DNA of 64,000 nt from a virus, in IMG/VR virus record IMGVR_UViG_3300045988_168563, positions 1 through 64,000 of that record. The stretch is one strand, 5' to 3'. This document shows positions 4,719-39,799 of the stretch, one piece after another. Position 1 is the first letter of the stretch. Every line of letters starts with the position of its first letter. The position numbers were made by a program, and so were the translations under genes. The notes under the pieces were generated by a model. The model was given only the letters and a program-made list of their open reading frames with translations. It was not told the origin of the DNA and did not search any database.

Positions 4719-4781
4719 CTTGGTTATAGTTGTTGAGGAAGAGAGAAAGATGTTTCCACCTACTCTCCCTTCCTCAGGTGA

Positions 4782-21168: not shown

Positions 21169-21193
21169 ATAGCCGACCTCTATGGCCGGCTAT
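21169..21193 (-). terminator. hairpin terminator immediately 3' of the tRNA
   Basis: atagccg..cggctat stem followed by TTTTAG on the minus strand. Confidence 0.5.
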
Positions 21194-21194
21194 G

Positions 21195-21268
21195 TGGCTG
21201 GTGGGGGACTCCAACCCCCAACCTGAGGTTTAGGAAACCTCTGCTCTATGCTGTTGAGCTAACCAGCC
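21195..21268 (-). tRNA. tRNA-Arg (anticodon CCT, reads AGG)
   Basis: 74 nt: GGCTGGT-TA-GCTC-AACAGCATA-GAGC-A-GAGGT-TTCCTAA-ACCTC-AGGTT-GGGGG-TTGGAGT-CCCCC-ACCAGCC-A. All four stems are perfect. The D-loop lacks GG and the T-loop reads TTGGAGT, so the elbow is atypical. Confidence 0.8.
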
Positions 21269-21317
21269 TTGTGCGGGCCACCCCCATTATGGCTAAGAGG
21301 TAAGCCCGCGTCGTGTA

Positions 21318-21399
21318 ATCACTCAAATGGAACCAATGCAAAGATAGTGCGTTTAGCGATATGAGCAACACAGGTGCGCCCATCTTTGCTTTGAGTGAT
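21318..21399 (-). promoter_or_regulatory. 82-nt imperfect hairpin enclosing the tRNA promoter -7 box TATCTTTG (21339-21346)
   Basis: Outer stem 21318-21327/21390-21399 (10 bp) and inner stem 21338-21345/21382-21389 (8 bp). The inner stem contains the -7 box. The element begins 2 nt after the stop of 21401..21790. Confidence 0.45.
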
Positions 21400-21400
21400 C

Positions 21401-21790
21401 TTAGTCTACAAGGATTCTTTCACCTACGTCTGTCTTGACGTAGGTAGCTGAGTCGACTCGCTCCTCAACGATCCGACCATCATCCTTGCGGACTATGAGG
21501 TAATAGCGTGCTTCCTGACGCTGTAGGCTCTCTTCTGTTGTCTTAGCATCCCAGACGTATATATATCCTGATGGGATGTACATCTTATCCTCCACAAGAG
21601 CGCTTTTCTTGCGATTTGAAGTGGTAGTAAGGACGGGAATAGACACTACGAATACCAATGATGCTATTATGACGACTCCATAGATCCTCTTTTTCTTTTT
21701 CGGTGTCCAGGGGTCAAGGTATCCTGATGTAGCAATTCCAAAGGCTATTAAGGAGACTATGAATAGTGTGAAAATTAGTAGATCTCGCAT
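21401..21790 (-). CDS. membrane protein (2 TM) with C-terminal beta-rich domain; distant paralog of 23503..23844
   Basis: ORF track; hydrophobic helices LLIFTLFIVSLIAFGIA and VVIIASLVFVVSIPVL. Confidence 0.55.
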   Translation of the reverse strand: MRDLLIFTLFIVSLIAFGIATSGYLDPWTPKKKKRIYGVVIIASLVFVVSIPVLTTTSNRKKSALVEDKMYIPSGYIYVWDAKTTEESLQRQEARYYLIVRKDDGRIVEERVDSATYVKTDVGERILVD

Positions 21791-21799
21791 TGGTCTATA

Positions 21800-22353
21800 C
21801 TATTAGAACTTGATACTATTTCTAGTCTCAAGTAAAACTTATGGATACACCATCCCCTAGGCAATTTAATAGGTATTGAGGAAAGACATATAAGTAGAAG
21901 AACATATTATTCCTTTCCTCATTAAACGCGCGCGCGAGGCACGTTTTCGGGCGAACCCGAACCTAGTTAAACTGCGCATAGGGGGATGGCTTCTTAGCCC
22001 CGAGGGTGAGGTACCACTATGGTATCCATTCCTTAGCCTCTCGGACTGTCTCTCTTCCTCAGGCAACACGTACCCACGGTTGATCGACACGCTACTCTTT
22101 ATCTAATCAGGACCTGAGTAGTAGTATTAGCTCACTTTCGGTCGGTCCAGACCTAGACGCGGATCACTTTACCAGCCGGCCACCTATCCGTCAATTTTTT
22201 GTATCCCCTGGGTTACTACCCTGAGCTCCTGGTGGCTTTCATTCTCCTCACAGGACGTACGATGACACCGATGAATGAGGAGGGGAATCCCAGCTATCCA
22301 CCGCCCTTGGGATGCCATACACTTCTGTACCTCCTAGGCGGCTTCATTGCTGG
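21800..22353 (-). ncRNA. candidate large structured non-coding RNA or unusually long 5' leader (~550 nt, ORF-free)
   Basis: No credible ORF on either strand. An exact -7 box lies at 22361-22368 pointing into the region. Many local hairpins, including ttcggg-TTCG-cccgaa, and a (CG)5 run. Adjacent to the tRNA. Confidence 0.35.
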
Positions 22354-22360
22354 GCCACCA

Positions 22361-22368
22361 CAAAGGTA
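22361..22368 (-). promoter_or_regulatory. -7 box TACCTTTG driving the ORF-free region 21800-22353
   Basis: Exact match on the minus strand, 45 nt downstream of the stop of 22413..22673. Confidence 0.5.
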
Positions 22369-22412
22369 GGAAGAATATCTGGGACTTGAGGAAGAGAGAG
22401 TAGGTGATCCTG

Positions 22413-22673
22413 CTACCTGAATAAGTTTGCAATATCATCTACATACATCTCCCATGCTATCTTGGTAGCTCGGCCACCTGTCTTGATGTCTGCCTCAATG
22501 TTTGTCTCATCGCCATCTGGGGTAACAAAGTAGAGCGCGTATGTATCTTTGACCTTGTAGATCCTGAAGTCATACCAGAGTATTAGGGTTTTTGCATTCC
22601 AGATCCTGTTATCCTCTATATTTACTACCCACTCTAGCGGCTTGAGGAGGCGTTCAAGTTGTTTTCTTGTCAT
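22413..22673 (-). CDS. small LKPLEW-family protein (paralog 1 of 4 in tandem)
   Basis: MTRKQLERLLKPLEW... IKTGGRATKIAWEMYVDDIANLF; paralogous to the next three genes. Confidence 0.6.
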   Translation of the reverse strand: MTRKQLERLLKPLEWVVNIEDNRIWNAKTLILWYDFRIYKVKDTYALYFVTPDGDETNIEADIKTGGRATKIAWEMYVDDIANLFR

Positions 22674-22682
22674 TCCCTCTCC

Positions 22683-22940
22683 TCACTTAAACATACTCAT
22701 TACGTCATCTACATACTCCTCCCATGCAAGCTCATACCCTTCCTCAAGAGTCTTGATGTCGTCTCTCACTAGGTCTACCTCACCATTGATGTCTCTCTTG
22801 AGGAGATTGTACTGGCCCATCGACCACTCCAGTACGAAGTCGTACCATAGGTTTGTACCTGCTTCTTGATCTTCAGGGTAAGTAGCTCCTCCGTACCACT
22901 CTAGCGGCTTGAGCATTTTTGATAGTTGTTCTTCTGTCAT
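22683..22940 (-). CDS. small LKPLEW-family protein (paralog 2)
   Basis: MTEEQLSKMLKPLEW... IKTLEEGYELAWEEYVDDVMSMF. Confidence 0.6.
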   Translation of the reverse strand: MTEEQLSKMLKPLEWYGGATYPEDQEAGTNLWYDFVLEWSMGQYNLLKRDINGEVDLVRDDIKTLEEGYELAWEEYVDDVMSMFK

Positions 22941-22945
22941 AGTTG

Positions 22946-23212
22946 TTACTTGAATTGCTGTAGTATATAATTTACGTGGTCTTCCCAGGCTATGGCTTTG
23001 GCTTCCTCTATTGTCTTAATGTCGACTGCGATGCCAACGCTCCACCTCCTATCAAAGTCCTCGATAGCCACTGCGTACATACCATCTAGTTCGTATATGC
23101 TATACCAGGAGCACTGTATCCCATAGTGCGCATAGATATCTTCCTTATCTCCGATTTTTCTCCGGCTCCAATGCAACGGTTTAAGCTCCTGTTTTAGTTG
23201 TTCTCTTGTCAT
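22946..23212 (-). CDS. small LKPLEW-family protein (paralog 3)
   Basis: Start moved to ATG 23212 (MTREQLKQELKPLHW), which forms an ATGA overlap with the upstream stop and matches the paralog N-termini. Confidence 0.6.
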   Translation of the reverse strand: MTREQLKQELKPLHWSRRKIGDKEDIYAHYGIQCSWYSIYELDGMYAVAIEDFDRRWSVGIAVDIKTIEEAKAIAWEDHVNYILQQFK

Positions 23213-23490
23213 GGCTCTATTCTGAATAAGTCTTCTATTTCGTCTACGTAGTCTTTCCATGCGATAGCTTTGGCTTCCTCGATGGTTTTAACTCCGTTTG
23301 CTAGATCTATAACGTTGCGGCCTGAGTCCTCTTCTCTGTTTACGGTATATCCATTCTTGTCTCTGAATATCACATACCAATAGTTTAGAGATTCTGCTGG
23401 TGCCGCCATGTCTTCATCTCTATAGCCGTATCGTCCTATAGGTCGCCAATCTAATGGCAACAGCTCTTGTTCTAGATACTCTCTTGTCAT
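23209..23490 (-). CDS. small LKPLEW-family protein (paralog 4)
   Basis: MTREYLEQELLPLDW... VKTIEEAKAIAWKDYVDEIEDLF. Confidence 0.6.
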   Translation of the reverse strand: MTREYLEQELLPLDWRPIGRYGYRDEDMAAPAESLNYWYVIFRDKNGYTVNREEDSGRNVIDLANGVKTIEEAKAIAWKDYVDEIEDLFRIEP

Positions 23491-36797: not shown

Positions 36798-37658
36798 TTA
36801 GAAGGGGAGACAGTCTGATTCGAAGAGGCCGGCGTGGAAGTTGTCATCAACTTCGAGGCGCTCCATCTCCTCGTAGTCCTCATCAGTCAGACGCTCACCA
36901 GTGTAACCGACCTTGTATTCACCGGTCTCTTCATCGAAGAACACCTCGAACTCATCACTGATGAAGGCCGACTCTCTCGCCATCTCCTCAGCGGCGATAG
37001 CCGCATTCTGAGTTAGCTCCATATCGAGGTCTAGCCAGTAATCCAGCTGAGCCATCCCACATAGCTTGCCGTAGAGAATACGATACTCTTCCTCAGTGGC
37101 AAACATACTAATGCCTGCCATAAGGTCTCTGTCTCTTGCTTCAGCACTGTCAAGGACGATCTTCTCGACCCATCCCATAGATTCCTTCTCATCAGTGTCA
37201 TAGTAGAGGCATTCCTCAACACGACTGAATGAGTAGGTGCGCTCAGCAAGCTCATCATAGCTGGATATATTAAGGTTAGACAATAGGGTTGACAATTCAC
37301 AGGTATGCTCCTCCTCAGGAACAGCATAGCCGATTTCACCACGCTCTTCGGCATCGACGAAAGTATCGTACTTCTGACTGTCGAAGGCTACAAGACCATC
37401 AAACAGCGCACGATACTCAATATCTGTGGCGTGAGCCTTGACGATATCAGCAAGGTAGTCAGCTATGCAACCTTCTGCACAGCGACCTACAGCACGCTTG
37501 ATATCATCAATATTACCATTGGTGCCATTATACTTCAGCCCATCGAGGACGATATTAGCCACAGGAGACCACAAAGCCATAGCAAGCTCAGCATAAGAAG
37601 AGCACCAAACGTTAGACAGAAGGACGGACGATTCACGGAGGGTCTTGATTGCTTCCAT
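36798..37658 (-). CDS. acidic hypothetical protein ending ...FESDCLPF (SSB-tip-like tail)
   Basis: ORF track; D/E-rich throughout; hairpin 36763-36787 downstream. Confidence 0.55.
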   Translation of the reverse strand: MEAIKTLRESSVLLSNVWCSSYAELAMALWSPVANIVLDGLKYNGTNGNIDDIKRAVGRCAEGCIADYLADIVKAHATDIEYRALFDGLVAFDSQKYDTFVDAEERGEIGYAVPEEEHTCELSTLLSNLNISSYDELAERTYSFSRVEECLYYDTDEKESMGWVEKIVLDSAEARDRDLMAGISMFATEEEYRILYGKLCGMAQLDYWLDLDMELTQNAAIAAEEMARESAFISDEFEVFFDEETGEYKVGYTGERLTDEDYEEMERLEVDDNFHAGLFESDCLPF

Positions 37659-37816
37659 TGTAGTAAGGTGTTAGGAAGTGAAACAATAAGGATGAACACC
37701 ACCCTACACAGGATGGCGTACGACAGATATAACAAGGCAACAACAGCTAAGTATAGCCATAGCATCACCACAAAACAACACAGCGGAGATAGACGAAAAG
37801 GTGGGAAGAGGAATAG

Positions 37817-37826
37817 CCCCCCCCCC
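37817..37826. repeat. C10 (G10 on minus strand) homopolymer in the loop of hairpin gggaaga..tcttccc
   Basis: Read directly: aatagCCCCCCCCCCacctc, about 160 nt upstream of ATG 37658. Confidence 0.9.
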
Positions 37827-37899
37827 ACCTCACGTCTTCCCATTGTAGCCGTCATCACAACAGCTATTCTGGGTGTTGTTGTCTTGTTCACTAGGATTG

Positions 37900-38225
37900 C
37901 CTAGCGCAGGGGTGTGTATTATCTCCTGAGGAGGGGAGAGTAGGTAATACACCCTTGATGTGGAGCTGGGTTACACCCCTTGCTGAGCTGTGCACTGGAC
38001 TCTGTGTCCTTGGTGCTTGTGACCTGGCCAGCGTCCTGCACTGGTGAGGTCTAGGGTGCGAGCTATGACGTGTGTCGCTCGCTATGCTCAGCGGTGGGGT
38101 ACCCACATCGTTGTGGTACCCATCGCTCCCTGACAAGGGATATTCCCCGCACCCGGGGGTACCAACACAGGAGCTGATTGCTGGAGGGGGTCCGAAGCGG
38201 GAGCCGTCAGCGCGAGTAAGTTCTG
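37900..38225. other. second G+C-rich structured non-coding block carrying a diverged third copy of the 21-mer module
   Basis: 38128-38148 is ccctgacaagggatattcccc. The next ~25 nt (gcacccgggggtaccaacacaggag) align with the sequence after copy 1 (gcaagcggcagggctaccaaccggagg). Confidence 0.4.
38128..38148. repeat. 21-mer module, diverged copy 3 (CCCTGACAAGGGATATTCCCC)
   Basis: 19/21 identity to copies 1 and 2, in the same orientation. Confidence 0.8.
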
Positions 38226-38304
38226 CTGTATCTAAAAATTTTTTAGGTCATTTTTTTTGTAGTCCTAAATCGGAGGTCATCAATATGATTGGTATTGGTA
38301 CTAT

Positions 38305-38487
38305 GGTTGAGGAAGGGATGGTGTATTCTGGTTGAGGAAGGGATAGTAGATGCACTTAGTGATCCTGAGTGTGTGCTGTGTAGGTGCCGGACTTAGCTGT
38401 GTGTTCGGTGTGGCTGAGGTGGGAATGGTGTGGGTATTTTGGTTGAGGAGGGTGTAGATCATCCTGGGTATTTTGGTTGAGGAGGAA
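38305..38487 (+). repeat. four direct repeats GGTTGAGGA(A/G)G(G/A) (38305, 38330, 38441, 38475), the last two inside a 20-nt repeat GGGTATTTTGGTTGAGGAGG
   Basis: Read directly from the sequence. Preceded by the A/T palindrome CTAAAAATTTTTTAG (38232-38246) and a T8 run. Confidence 0.85.
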
Positions 38488-38495
38488 GAAGTGTG

Positions 38496-38503
38496 TATCT
38501 TTG
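38496..38503 (+). promoter_or_regulatory. -7 box TATCTTTG (P1), first of the tandem array
   Basis: Exact TAnnTTTG. Confidence 0.5.
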
Positions 38504-38545
38504 GTGTGAGAAGTTTCGACATAACTGTTTGGTATTTATCGTAGG

Positions 38546-38596
38546 ATACGTGTTGCCCGTGATGGGTGGCACGTATTCGTTTTATGTGTACCTTTG
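38546..38596 (+). promoter_or_regulatory. array unit: hairpin 38546-38576 (atacgtg..cacgtat) plus -7 box TACCTTTG 38589-38596 (P2)
   Basis: Read directly; T run cgTTTTatg lies between the hairpin and the box. Confidence 0.55.
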
Positions 38597-38660
38597 TGTT
38601 GCTGGGTTTTGAGCTTTTTCCCAGCACATCATATTTCCATTGGTTTATAGTTTTACATGG

Positions 38661-38709
38661 TACGCGTTGTCTGAGAAGATAGCGCGTATCGCTTTTATGT
38701 ATATCTTTG
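38661..38709 (+). promoter_or_regulatory. array unit: hairpin 38661-38688 (tacgcg..cgcgta) plus TATCTTTG 38702-38709 (P3)
   Basis: Read directly. Confidence 0.55.
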
Positions 38710-38747
38710 CGGTAGGGGAGTCTTCCCCTCGTGTGTGCCATTGTTTG

Positions 38748-38802
38748 TATGCATCATCTCTATATGGGGTGGTGCATACTTCTTTGATATGTATTATCTT
38801 TG
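38748..38802 (+). promoter_or_regulatory. array unit: hairpin 38748-38778 (tatgca..tgcata) plus TATCTTTG 38795-38802 (P4)
   Basis: Read directly. Confidence 0.55.
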
Positions 38803-38846
38803 TGGCGATAGGTAATTAGCTTCATATTGATTGTTTAGTTAGGGTT

Positions 38847-38899
38847 ACATGCACTGCTCCTCGGGGTGGTGCATGTTCTCGTATAAAGGTGTATCTTTG
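38847..38899 (+). promoter_or_regulatory. array unit: hairpin 38847-38876 (acatgcac..gtgcatgt) plus TATCTTTG 38892-38899 (P5)
   Basis: Read directly. Confidence 0.55.
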
Positions 38900-38946
38900 C
38901 ACTGTTGAGTCTCCCATACTATTTAGGTTAGTTGTTAAACTGGGTC

Positions 38947-38991
38947 TGCGCATCACTCTCATGAGTGGTGCGCATATCTTTTGTACCTTTG
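38947..38991 (+). promoter_or_regulatory. array unit: hairpin 38947-38974 (tgcgcatcactc..gagtggtgcgca) plus TACCTTTG 38984-38991 (P6)
   Basis: Read directly. Confidence 0.55.
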
Positions 38992-39042
38992 TGTTGTGGA
39001 TATAATAGGTTAATTGGCTAATCAAGTGTAGCTTGATTTTGG

Positions 39043-39107
39043 TACGCACTGCCTGGGAAGGTGGTGCGTATTGCTTTTGGGGATTTGAGGAAAGGGTGGT
39101 ATCTTTG
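39043..39107 (+). promoter_or_regulatory. array unit: hairpin 39043-39070 (tacgcac..gtgcgta) plus TATCTTTG 39100-39107 (P7)
   Basis: Read directly. Confidence 0.55.
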
Positions 39108-39186
39108 CCTTGTAATAAATCTTATCGTTATTCTTGGGCTGTGAGGTTAGTCCCACAATTTCCATTTCAAATTTGTCTATCAGCTG

Positions 39187-39247
39187 TGCGCTACTCGGGA
39201 GAGTGGCGCATGGTGTTTTGGTAGGTTGGGGATTATATATACCTTTG
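39187..39247 (+). promoter_or_regulatory. array unit: hairpin 39187-39210 (tgcgc.actc..gagt.gcgca) plus TACCTTTG 39240-39247 (P8)
   Basis: Read directly. Confidence 0.55.
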
Positions 39248-39309
39248 CGGTGAAGGGTGGCGACCTTTCTGCATCGTATCTTATCTTTTATCTCTGCTCC
39301 TCGGGGCTT

Positions 39310-39385
39310 GGAGTGTGATCCAAAGGCTTGGGCCTGACTTTGTCGGGTGGCTGGCGCCGAGGTGGTTCGATTCCCCCGCACTCTA
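39310..39385 (+). ncRNA. tRNA-like element 1 (76 nt, non-canonical; possibly a decayed tRNA)
   Basis: 7-bp acceptor-like pairing ggagtgt/gcactct including two G-U pairs. T-arm ggtgg-TTCGATT-ccccc has one mismatch. No standard anticodon arm: the best loop is actttgt on a weak stem. Confidence 0.3.
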
Positions 39386-39388
39386 CTA

Positions 39389-39445
39389 CTGACTGGTGCT
39401 GTAGGCACGCGTGACGACGCTAGGGTTTGATTCCCTACGGTCAGG
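39389..39445 (+). ncRNA. tRNA-like element 2 (57 nt mini cloverleaf lacking a normal anticodon loop)
   Basis: Acceptor ctgactg/cggtcag (7 bp, one G-U). T-arm taggg-TTTGATT-cccta. Two 4-bp mini-hairpins lie between them. Confidence 0.3.
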
Positions 39446-39727
39446 TCTTATCACTGCTCTCTCCTCATGAGGAAGACAGCAACACATTGCGCTTGTAGGG
39501 CCCTATCCCCGAAGGCGATGGTCTGCGACTGATAGGTCGGTCAAGCGGATAGTGGTGTGAGATGGCGGCGACTCAGTGATCCGTTCGGTACACTTTATTA
39601 CTCACAAATGGGGGACACCAAAGACCTGCCTAAGATCCCCTGCCAATACGAAGGTATATCAGGCTACCTTCGAGTAGAGGTCGGACGATGACACCGAGAC
39701 CTCGCAATGACGCTCACCTTTCCATAG

Positions 39728-39799
39728 GGTGGGCGTCGCCTTTTATACGCCACCACAATGTCCTCTTTCCTCAGGCCATATAGTTATGCCTTACCTTTG
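39728..39799 (+). promoter_or_regulatory. hairpin 39728-39754 (ggtgg.cgt..acgccacc) plus TACCTTTG 39792-39799 (P9), the late-operon promoter
   Basis: The -7 box lies 25 nt upstream of ATG 39824. No further TAnnTTTG was noticed upstream of the later late-gene starts that I checked. Confidence 0.6.

Follow-up and report, generated by a model that had tools for sequence, protein, structure and literature searches.

A stretch of viral DNA of 64,000 nucleotides (nt), taken from positions 1–64,000 of the IMG/VR record IMGVR_UViG_3300045988_168563 and called the window below, encodes on its minus strand a conserved, structured and promoter-associated non-coding RNA of about 565 nt, which is a candidate for a new RNA family. 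The RNA lies in a gap of 622 nt without open reading frames (ORFs) at 21791–22412, between the stop codon of a gene for 86 amino acids (aa; 22413–22673, minus) and the ATG of orf129, a minus-strand gene for a membrane protein. The earlier note on this DNA had proposed a promoter-driven structured RNA at this place, either a long leader or free-standing, and this proposal is now supported by the non-coding status of the region, the purifying selection on it, an invariant promoter box and covariation. We give a little less than an even chance to the reading that selection acts on the folded RNA for a function of its own, and that it is not merely a spacer or a simple on/off leader.

Non-Coding Status and Conservation

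The phage is assigned from its proteins to the crAss-like viruses (Crassvirales) of the human gut, because TerL and the portal protein match crAss-type PHROGs and TerL is 50–52% identical to that of the IAS virus, cr85_1 and PhiCrAssBcn (Bacteroides intestinalis) phages. Among deposited phage genomes no close relative was seen: a distant blastn search of 50,697 phage records matched only the tRNA, and tblastn with two neighbouring proteins found nothing in the phage collection. Relatives were gathered through orf129, the 86-aa gene and a helicase, through two exact 20-mers of the region and through exact-protein look-ups, giving about 40 contigs, mostly of 87–95 kb, from IMG/VR, ENA and Logan (individual relatives are given L numbers). 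These hold 24 distinct full-length variants of the block, and the alignment used below, A2, holds 22.

The gap is non-coding on both strands, in a part of the window (1 to about 38 kb) where the minus strand carries every gene. The claim that no plausible ORF exists at 21791–22412 was borne out, with no conserved ORF among the relatives; the Arg-rich ORF of 74 aa that starts at GTG is there (21866–22090, minus, 12 Arg), and ORFs of 74, 56 and 44 aa are intact in 2, 1 and 1 of the 22 variants. The statement that gaps in this genome are otherwise 0–100 nt was too strong, for although the median gap is 10 nt, there are gaps of 167–466 nt and one of 2.1 kb (37659–39757), after which the 622-nt gap is the second largest in the window by simple tiling of ATG ORFs. 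The end of the region, placed at 22368 in the earlier note, lies further out, as the conserved block reaches to about 22400.

A missed protein gene read through recoded stop codons, a conserved micro-ORF or a decayed pseudogene would be a very improbable explanation of the block. Stop codons are reassigned in some crAss-like phages (PMC9226505), and short ORFs of 17 and 25 aa stay intact in 20–21 of the 22 variants. Each of the six frames, however, has 9–14 stops of at least two types, so that reassignment of a single stop cannot open any of them, and the sole tRNA is Arg(CCT), with no suppressor. Variable columns fall by phase as 45/47/48, so substitutions have no three-base periodicity, and gaps occur in 18 alignment columns, mostly as scattered single-base indels. 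The 17-aa peptide turns from RRYRSVWHP into SGCRSTRHA through the very substitutions that preserve the hairpin P3 described below, and the short ORFs stay open solely through sequence conservation. A coding or recoded gene was rejected, given no conserved open frame and no codon-periodic substitution. Decay of a pseudogene would outpace that of the flanks; this region evolves more slowly than its surroundings, and it is therefore not a decayed pseudogene. A protein gene at this site in homologous phages, which the earlier note had named as the finding that would speak against an RNA, was looked for, and all full-length relatives keep the ORF-free gap of about 620 nt. By gene calls, the interval is present in every recovered contig that spans the site.

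The block is colinear with the window in all full-length relatives, at 91.5–96.6% identity, while identity in its flanks is 78–90% and, in most relatives, the DNA of the first half of orf129 has diverged too far to be aligned. In the distant clade L032–L035 the block is 94–95.5% identical, against 72–76% at third codon positions of the helicase and 91–93% at first and second positions. These comparisons support stronger purifying selection on the region than on neighbouring synonymous sites.

The Promoter

The box TACCTTTG, which the earlier note had placed at 22361–22368 on the minus strand and pointing into the region, is present there and is invariant in all 22 variants. It belongs to the TAnnTTTG type, the −7 element recognized by the primary sigma factor of Bacteroidota, sigma-ABfr (PMC7366714). 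The generic TAnnTTTG is not enriched in the window, with 16 copies on the minus strand against 13.5 expected, and a single copy of it is not significant. The sharper TAYCTTTG, by contrast, occurs 20 times in the window against 3.6 ± 1.9 expected, a count reached in 0 of 100 shuffles, and 19 of the 20 copies are co-oriented with local transcription. Minus-strand copies stand just upstream of gene starts (2695, 16835 and 17992), of the tRNA (21339) and of the region (22361). Transcription would thus be expected to start at about 22355 ± 3. The 26 nt upstream of the box are also invariant, although they would not be transcribed from that promoter.

The RNA Fold and Its Covariation

On the 22 variants, RNAalifold predicts 173 pairs, in the helices listed in Table 1. 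In P3 the pairs at alignment columns 80–102, 81–101, 85–94 and 86–93 are each changed on both sides, and 100% of their cells are paired. P4 shows a paired deletion, in that the partners U136 and A167 are lost together in three variants (L033, L042 and L035), while its remaining pairs are invariant. Long invariant single-stranded stretches separate P5, P6 and P7; for P5 and P6 the evidence is conservation alone, and in P7 the pair 268–275 passes from C-G through U-G to U-A. The variable pairs of P8–P9 are 378–416 (GU/GC), 371–422 and 384–410. The long-range helix P10 varies at 445–558 (AU/UA/GU), 446–557 (GU/AU/GC) and 428–572 (GU/AU), in five haplotypes that all pair. The UUCG-capped hairpin and the (CG)5 run that had been read in the single sequence are both present, in P11 and P12, respectively. 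In five of the 22 aligned variants, and also in L056, the P11 stem and loop UUCGGG-UUCG-CCCGAA is swapped for GCGGG-AUCAAA-CCCGC, and the hairpin is kept.

Within the P4 loop there is co-variation of a non-Watson–Crick kind, with columns 143/156 reading U/U, G/A or A/A and changing together with the base at column 150 (absent, C or A). This may mark a non-canonical pair or a tertiary motif.

Table 1. Features of the RNA and its surroundings (window positions; all on the minus strand).
Feature	Position	Strand	Remarks
Whole conserved ORF-free block	21791–22400	-	From 12 nt past the 86-aa gene stop to the orf129 ATG
5′ arm, perfect 13-bp inverted repeat	22387–22399	-	Upstream of the promoter box
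TACCTTTG, Bacteroidota-type −7 promoter box	22361–22368	-	Invariant in 22/22 variants
Domain I, long irregular hairpin P1-P2-P3 (64 nt)	22290–22353	-	P3 covariation
P3, GAAG-capped	22310–22334	-	Four pairs changed on both sides, at least three haplotypes
P4 hairpin, CUCCUCAU / GUGAGGAG	22244–22282	-	Paired deletion
P5, P6 and P7 hairpins (within 22140–22221)	22210–22221, 22160–22190, 22140–22153	-	RNAalifold
3′ arm, 13-bp inverted repeat, purine tract UGAGGAAGAGAGA inside the RNA	22049–22061	-	
P8-P9 extended hairpin	21996–22047	-	RNAalifold; one-sided, G-U-compatible variation
Domain IV, junction of about 140 nt closed by the 20-bp long-range P10 and holding P11-P13	21849–21990	-	Covariation
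P11, UUCG-capped	21946–21963	-	Stem swap
P12, (CG)5 run	21926–21944	-	UG to CG at two pairs
P13	21877–21921	-	Pair 507–537 shows three pair types
3′ hairpin, 17 nt ahead of the orf129 AUG, without a U-tract	21808–21833	-	Fold and alignment
orf129, membrane protein, 129 aa	21401–21790	-	Directly downstream, probably co-transcribed
tRNA-Arg(CCT) unit	21169–21346	-	Own TATCTTTG box 21339–21346, tRNA 21194–21268, terminator hairpin and T-run 21169–21193

Compensatory changes were thus found in P3, P7, P10, P12 and P13 once the covariation check suggested in the earlier note had been run on the related phages, and in these five helices, joined by the P4 deletion and the P11 swap, covariation goes beyond the controls. 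Six pairs carry double compensatory changes, amounting to 29 cells against 8.0 ± 2.1 in shuffles and 0–6 with slid partners, and the covariation score is 0.054, against 0.038 for shuffles and 0.006–0.022 for slid partners. All 14 of the pair states found in at least three sequences keep pairing, a figure that partly reflects the choice of pairs by RNAalifold, and rare pair states are kept 20 times and broken 26 times, which looks like noise. Common variants affect 6% of paired columns and 21% of unpaired ones. A scan blind to structure picks out eight column pairs, all in helices of 4 base pairs (bp) or more, that are changed on both sides and canonical throughout; the null mean is 2.4, and a count of 8 comes up once in 200 permutations. 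The fold comprises at least two domains that have independent support, namely the hairpin at 22290–22353 and the junction at 21849–21990.

It is the minus-strand transcript whose folding is supported by the compensatory changes and by the asymmetry of G-U pairs. There are 353 G-U cells, and 99.3% of cells are canonical as a minus-strand fold, against 90.2% if the opposite strand is folded likewise. The alifold energies of the two strands are −186.5 (minus) and −167.3 (plus), and the minimum free energy (MFE) is lower for the minus strand in 22 of 22 variants. With 20 shuffles each, the fold z-score is −6.2 (minus) and −5.5 (plus). In a separate control the region scored −5.1, and fourteen other minus-strand windows of 622 nt scored 0.0 to −4.4, except the non-coding 37400–38021 at −5.9. 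The background of this genome is already negative, with the region at its extreme though not alone there, and such z-scores are supportive, not decisive.

A recent recombinational sweep might account for the high identity, the structure then being mostly what any G+C-rich 600-mer folds into. The phage genomes are clearly mosaic and haplotype blocks recombine inside the RNA (e.g., L041 and L020); the structure of the single sequence is half supported, and coding windows of the genome also reach z-scores of −2 to −4. We nevertheless regard a sweep as improbable, as it leaves unexplained the double compensatory changes confined to antiparallel helix positions, the paired deletion and the threefold depletion of common variants in paired columns. 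The segment diverges about five times more slowly than synonymous sites, and it is not young, because it exists in 24 distinct variants with 81 commonly variable columns.

The RNA and orf129

In the course of events proposed here, host RNA polymerase would start at TACCTTTG, at about 22355 on the minus strand and in the sense of the neighbouring genes, and the resulting RNA of about 565 nt would fold into several domains, with the 64-nt hairpin, the P10-closed junction of about 140 nt and further hairpins between them. In the absence of a terminator it would be made as the 5′ portion of a transcript running into orf129. By analogy with GOLLD and ROOL, which lie beside tRNA genes, it might then be a stable RNA module, possibly cut from the mRNA, that acts during infection.

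Directly ahead of orf129 stands a further hairpin (21808–21833), whose inner stem is remodelled in L045 and L037 while the outer stem is kept; it is not a canonical intrinsic terminator. Since no terminator intervenes, the RNA physically makes up the 5′ portion of the orf129 mRNA if no processing takes place. For orf129 itself, AlphaFold predicts two N-terminal transmembrane helices (predicted local distance difference test, pLDDT, about 85) and a beta-rich C-terminal domain (pLDDT about 50). A weak match to DUF7489 is the only one in Pfam, and a profile search of the PDB returned no relative.

Among the relatives, orf129 falls into two main allele groups with about 50% overall identity between them, and its N-terminal two-helix half is hypervariable while the last 65 residues are nearly invariant. 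Judged from the sequences, this is the pattern expected for a protein of the surface, or one that interacts with the envelope, under diversifying pressure.

The whole element may instead be a long structured 5′ leader of the orf129 mRNA, acting in cis and without any function apart from orf129, and this explanation is plausible if, in our judgement, doubtful. The fold would then set the translation, stability or timing of the small membrane protein, perhaps through a bound protein, metabolite or small RNA. From the box at 22361–22368 to the AUG at 21790 the region is a 5′ untranslated region (UTR), a terminator scan finding no intrinsic terminator in it, and TACCTTTG is the sole consensus promoter able to serve orf129. 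The RNA and orf129 are neighbours in every relative, and conservation reaches the AUG, the final 40 nt before it, with the hairpin at 21808–21833, being nearly invariant. When 50 nt of the ORF are included, the MFE structure pairs 22140–22165 with the start-codon region. That pairing, however, uses codons 3–4, which read GAUC, GACU, GAUU, GACC or GAAC among the relatives, and because these vary without compensating changes no conserved expression platform is evident. The N-terminal half of orf129 evolves fast whereas the RNA is nearly fixed, and no known riboswitch or leader family and no Rfam aptamer matches the region. Bacteroides 5′ UTRs have a median length of 32 nt, with 13.5% above 100 nt (PMC7366714), so that about 565 nt with at least 13 helices goes far beyond their normal range.

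Several points tell against an RNA that is selected for its own sake. The absence of a terminator, the conservation up to the AUG and the constant adjacency to orf129 fit a cis-acting leader equally well. In the structure predicted from the window sequence alone, common variants keep 19 pairs and break 19, and so only some of the helices in the prediction are real; the middle third (about 22060–22140) has no structural support. Diversity is low, at about 5% divergence within one genus, and the covariation amounts to a handful of events in P3, P7, P10, P12 and P13. The fold z-score is extreme for the genome but not unique. Neither a homologue of the RNA outside the genus nor a partner protein has been identified, and the start and 3′ end of the transcript, its stability or processing and any function in trans are matters that we infer.

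Readings at the Level of DNA

A perfect 13-bp inverted repeat has one arm upstream of the promoter box and the other inside the RNA (Table 1). Covariation is absent from it, and of the few single changes that it carries about half break it. The promoter and start region is also complementary to 22224–22234. Only in transcripts that read through from the gene upstream could either pairing form a helix. We rejected the long-range helices that draw on sequence ahead of the promoter (helices 1, 2 and 4 of A2), as they lack covariation and most single changes break them.

The constraint might lie on the DNA, as a platform for a regulator, a transcription-primed origin (like that of ColE1 RNA II or the T4 origins) or an invertible promoter segment, all of which together seem improbable to us, if a shade less so than the sweep. 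The inverted repeat brackets a 325-bp segment that bears TACCTTTG, and the same layout, with inverted repeats flanking a promoter segment, is found in the invertons of Bacteroides (PMC8375218). The invariance of the 26 nt upstream of the box is a further point in its favour. On the other side, the compensatory changes and the strand-specific G-U pattern point to a fold of RNA. An inverton is unlikely, because all recovered contigs that span the segment have it in one orientation, a weak test since assemblies show the majority orientation only, and because no recombinase turned up in scans of 30 window proteins, 10 of them against PHROGs and the other 20 against Pfam. As for an origin, cumulative GC skew falls steadily through 22 kb to a minimum at about 34–38 kb, and the region is richer in G+C than its flanks and holds neither iterons nor direct repeats. 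A replication origin at the region was rejected, the GC-skew minimum being elsewhere and no A+T-rich element being present.

Distribution of the RNA

As far as can be traced by sequence, the RNA is specific to one crAss-like genus, and this genus is an isolated one. Its helicase homologues are 85–97% identical within the genus and at most 43% outside it, and no homologue of orf129 was found outside. Neither nhmmer nor R1, a covariance model built on domain IV, finds a homologue of the RNA in three of the nearest outside contigs or in one half of the IAS virus genome. One 20-mer of the region, sought as an exact match in 185,579 bacterial and archaeal genomes, was present in none of them, and a metagenome scan returned contigs of the same genus plus one chance match, in a high-G+C coding region (L040). 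Second copies in the window, or a spread like that of miniature inverted-repeat transposable elements, were ruled out, nhmmer finding a single copy.

At 4730–4776 of the window (plus strand) there is a weak match to the domain IV model, covering part of the P13 hairpin (E 0.04), and to nhmmer (E 0.054), which is probably a low-complexity similarity of GAGGAAG/CTTCCTC. By TerL the nearest relative that has been classified is the IAS virus (L052, NC_049978.1). At 85–99 kb of its record, in the minus-strand early/replication region, several gaps of 460–1000 nt are without annotation, and a tRNA cluster lies near the start of that region. None of these gaps matches the RNA by nhmmer or by R1.

Neighbouring Features of the Window

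The tRNA gene that had been noted near the region is a tRNA-Arg(CCT) gene with a promoter box and a terminator of its own. From 2 nt past the orf129 stop there are nested inverted repeats (21318–21399, minus), one of 10 bp that is perfect (21318–21327 / 21390–21399) and one of 12 bp at 92% (21334–21345 / 21382–21393), whose 3′ arm holds the tRNA-Arg promoter box TATCTTTG. In a read-through RNA these repeats would form a long hairpin, and in the DNA the tRNA promoter would be embedded in them.

Directly upstream of the RNA (22413–23490, minus) lies a tandem array of at least four paralogous genes of 85–104 aa, which share the motifs LKPLEW and IKT(I/L)EE.(K/Y).(I/L)AWE and differ in copy number among the relatives. 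None of them has a Pfam or PHROG match.

The 2.1-kb ORF-free stretch at 37659–39757 is a divergent control region that parts the minus-strand module of genes from the plus-strand one. Eight TAYCTTTG boxes stand on its plus strand (38496, 38589, 38702, 38795, 38892, 38984, 39100 and 39240), spaced 92–140 nt apart, several of which follow a short palindrome, and Tandem Repeats Finder (TRF) detects no tandem repeat in it. The cumulative GC-skew minimum lies near this stretch, where the strongly folding 37400–38021 is also found. This stretch may serve as an origin and a hub of regulation, or may give rise to a series of short transcripts. At about 39360–39445 (plus), in ORF-free sequence just before the first plus-strand gene, are two strings that resemble tRNA T-arms, ggttcgattcccc and gggtttgattccc; ARAGORN and Rfam both report no tRNA or tmRNA at this place.

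Comparison with Known RNAs

The search of Rfam that the earlier note had called for was run, with GOLLD, ROOL and HEARO among the models. No family of Rfam 15 matches, at the gathering threshold for the whole window or at E ≤ 10 for three nested ranges (among them 1.6 kb and 641 nt), and this holds for GOLLD, ROOL, OLE, HEARO, riboswitches and ribozymes. The scans return the tRNA and matches at chance level only; the earlier note itself had claimed no similarity to GOLLD or ROOL. A HEARO or omega RNA was dismissed, there being no model match and no nuclease or transposase (IscB, TnpB) Pfam match in the neighbouring genes. So was an RNA associated with a reverse transcriptase (retron, UG/Abi DRT-type), since no such domain, and none of IscB or TnpB either, is seen among 20 window proteins searched against Pfam, including the ten neighbours within about 5 kb.

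Among phage RNAs found with tRNAs, the species 1 and 2 RNAs of T4 (rnaC and rnaD) are small stable RNAs whose function is not known; they measure about 120–140 nt and are processed from a tRNA precursor. The present RNA is likewise a non-tRNA RNA placed near a phage tRNA gene, but at four times their size it has a promoter to itself, and a protein gene and a second promoter stand between it and the tRNA.

As a leader the element would recall that of E. coli rpoS, which is 567 nt long, in having a promoter far upstream, several hundred folded nucleotides and no terminator before the ORF. It differs in that no conserved sequestration of the start codon was found and no known regulator is apparent, and in being more conserved than the gene it would regulate. 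Bacteroidota do without initiation based on Shine–Dalgarno sequences, and to our knowledge few post-transcriptional control elements of this sort are known in them, so a leader of this kind would be an unusually elaborate one for Bacteroidota.

OLE RNA is bound by a membrane protein, OapA (PMC12286853), and here too a structured RNA of about 600 nt lies beside the gene for a small membrane protein. No OLE model matches, however, and orf129 has no detectable relation to OapA. By the positive-inside rule, the sequence of orf129 suggests that its conserved beta domain faces the periplasm and so could not bind a cytoplasmic RNA. The resemblance to OLE and OapA is positional only.

Similar in kind are ROOL and GOLLD, RNAs of hundreds of nucleotides with many helices that occur in phage genomes, often near tRNA genes, with no associated protein and with a function that is not known (PMC12286853). 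The present element shares with them its length of about 565 nt, its at least 13 predicted helices, its location in a phage genome and the tRNA-Arg gene that starts about 520 nt downstream. It departs from them in giving no covariance-model match even at E ≤ 10, and in having a protein gene between the RNA and the tRNA that is probably co-transcribed with the RNA. ROOL and GOLLD have been described mainly from Firmicutes, Actinobacteria and environmental samples, whereas this element is confined to a single genus of crAss-like virus from a Bacteroidota host clade. GOLLD, moreover, has a conserved 3′ domain and many members above 800 nt, while the element here is at most 622 nt. It thus resembles ROOL and GOLLD in kind and is a member of neither family.

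In the boldest form of the proposal it would found a new class of large RNAs of Crassvirales that have several domains and act in trans, the equivalent in Bacteroidota phages of ROOL and GOLLD, released from the orf129 transcript by cleavage and working as an RNA-only machine (e.g., as a homo-oligomer or as a decoy for a host factor or defence system), and this we consider unlikely, though not greatly so. Such an RNA would be the first functional RNA other than tRNA described for crAss-like phages. These phages rank with the most abundant viruses in the human gut, and a full-text search of the literature turned up no account of any structured non-coding RNA in them. Because its sequence is short enough for synthesis, its role is directly testable. 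With its length of about 565 nt and with better conservation than the proteins next to it, such an RNA would add a family to the short list of large RNAs of bacteria and phages (GOLLD, ROOL and OLE), and in another host phylum.

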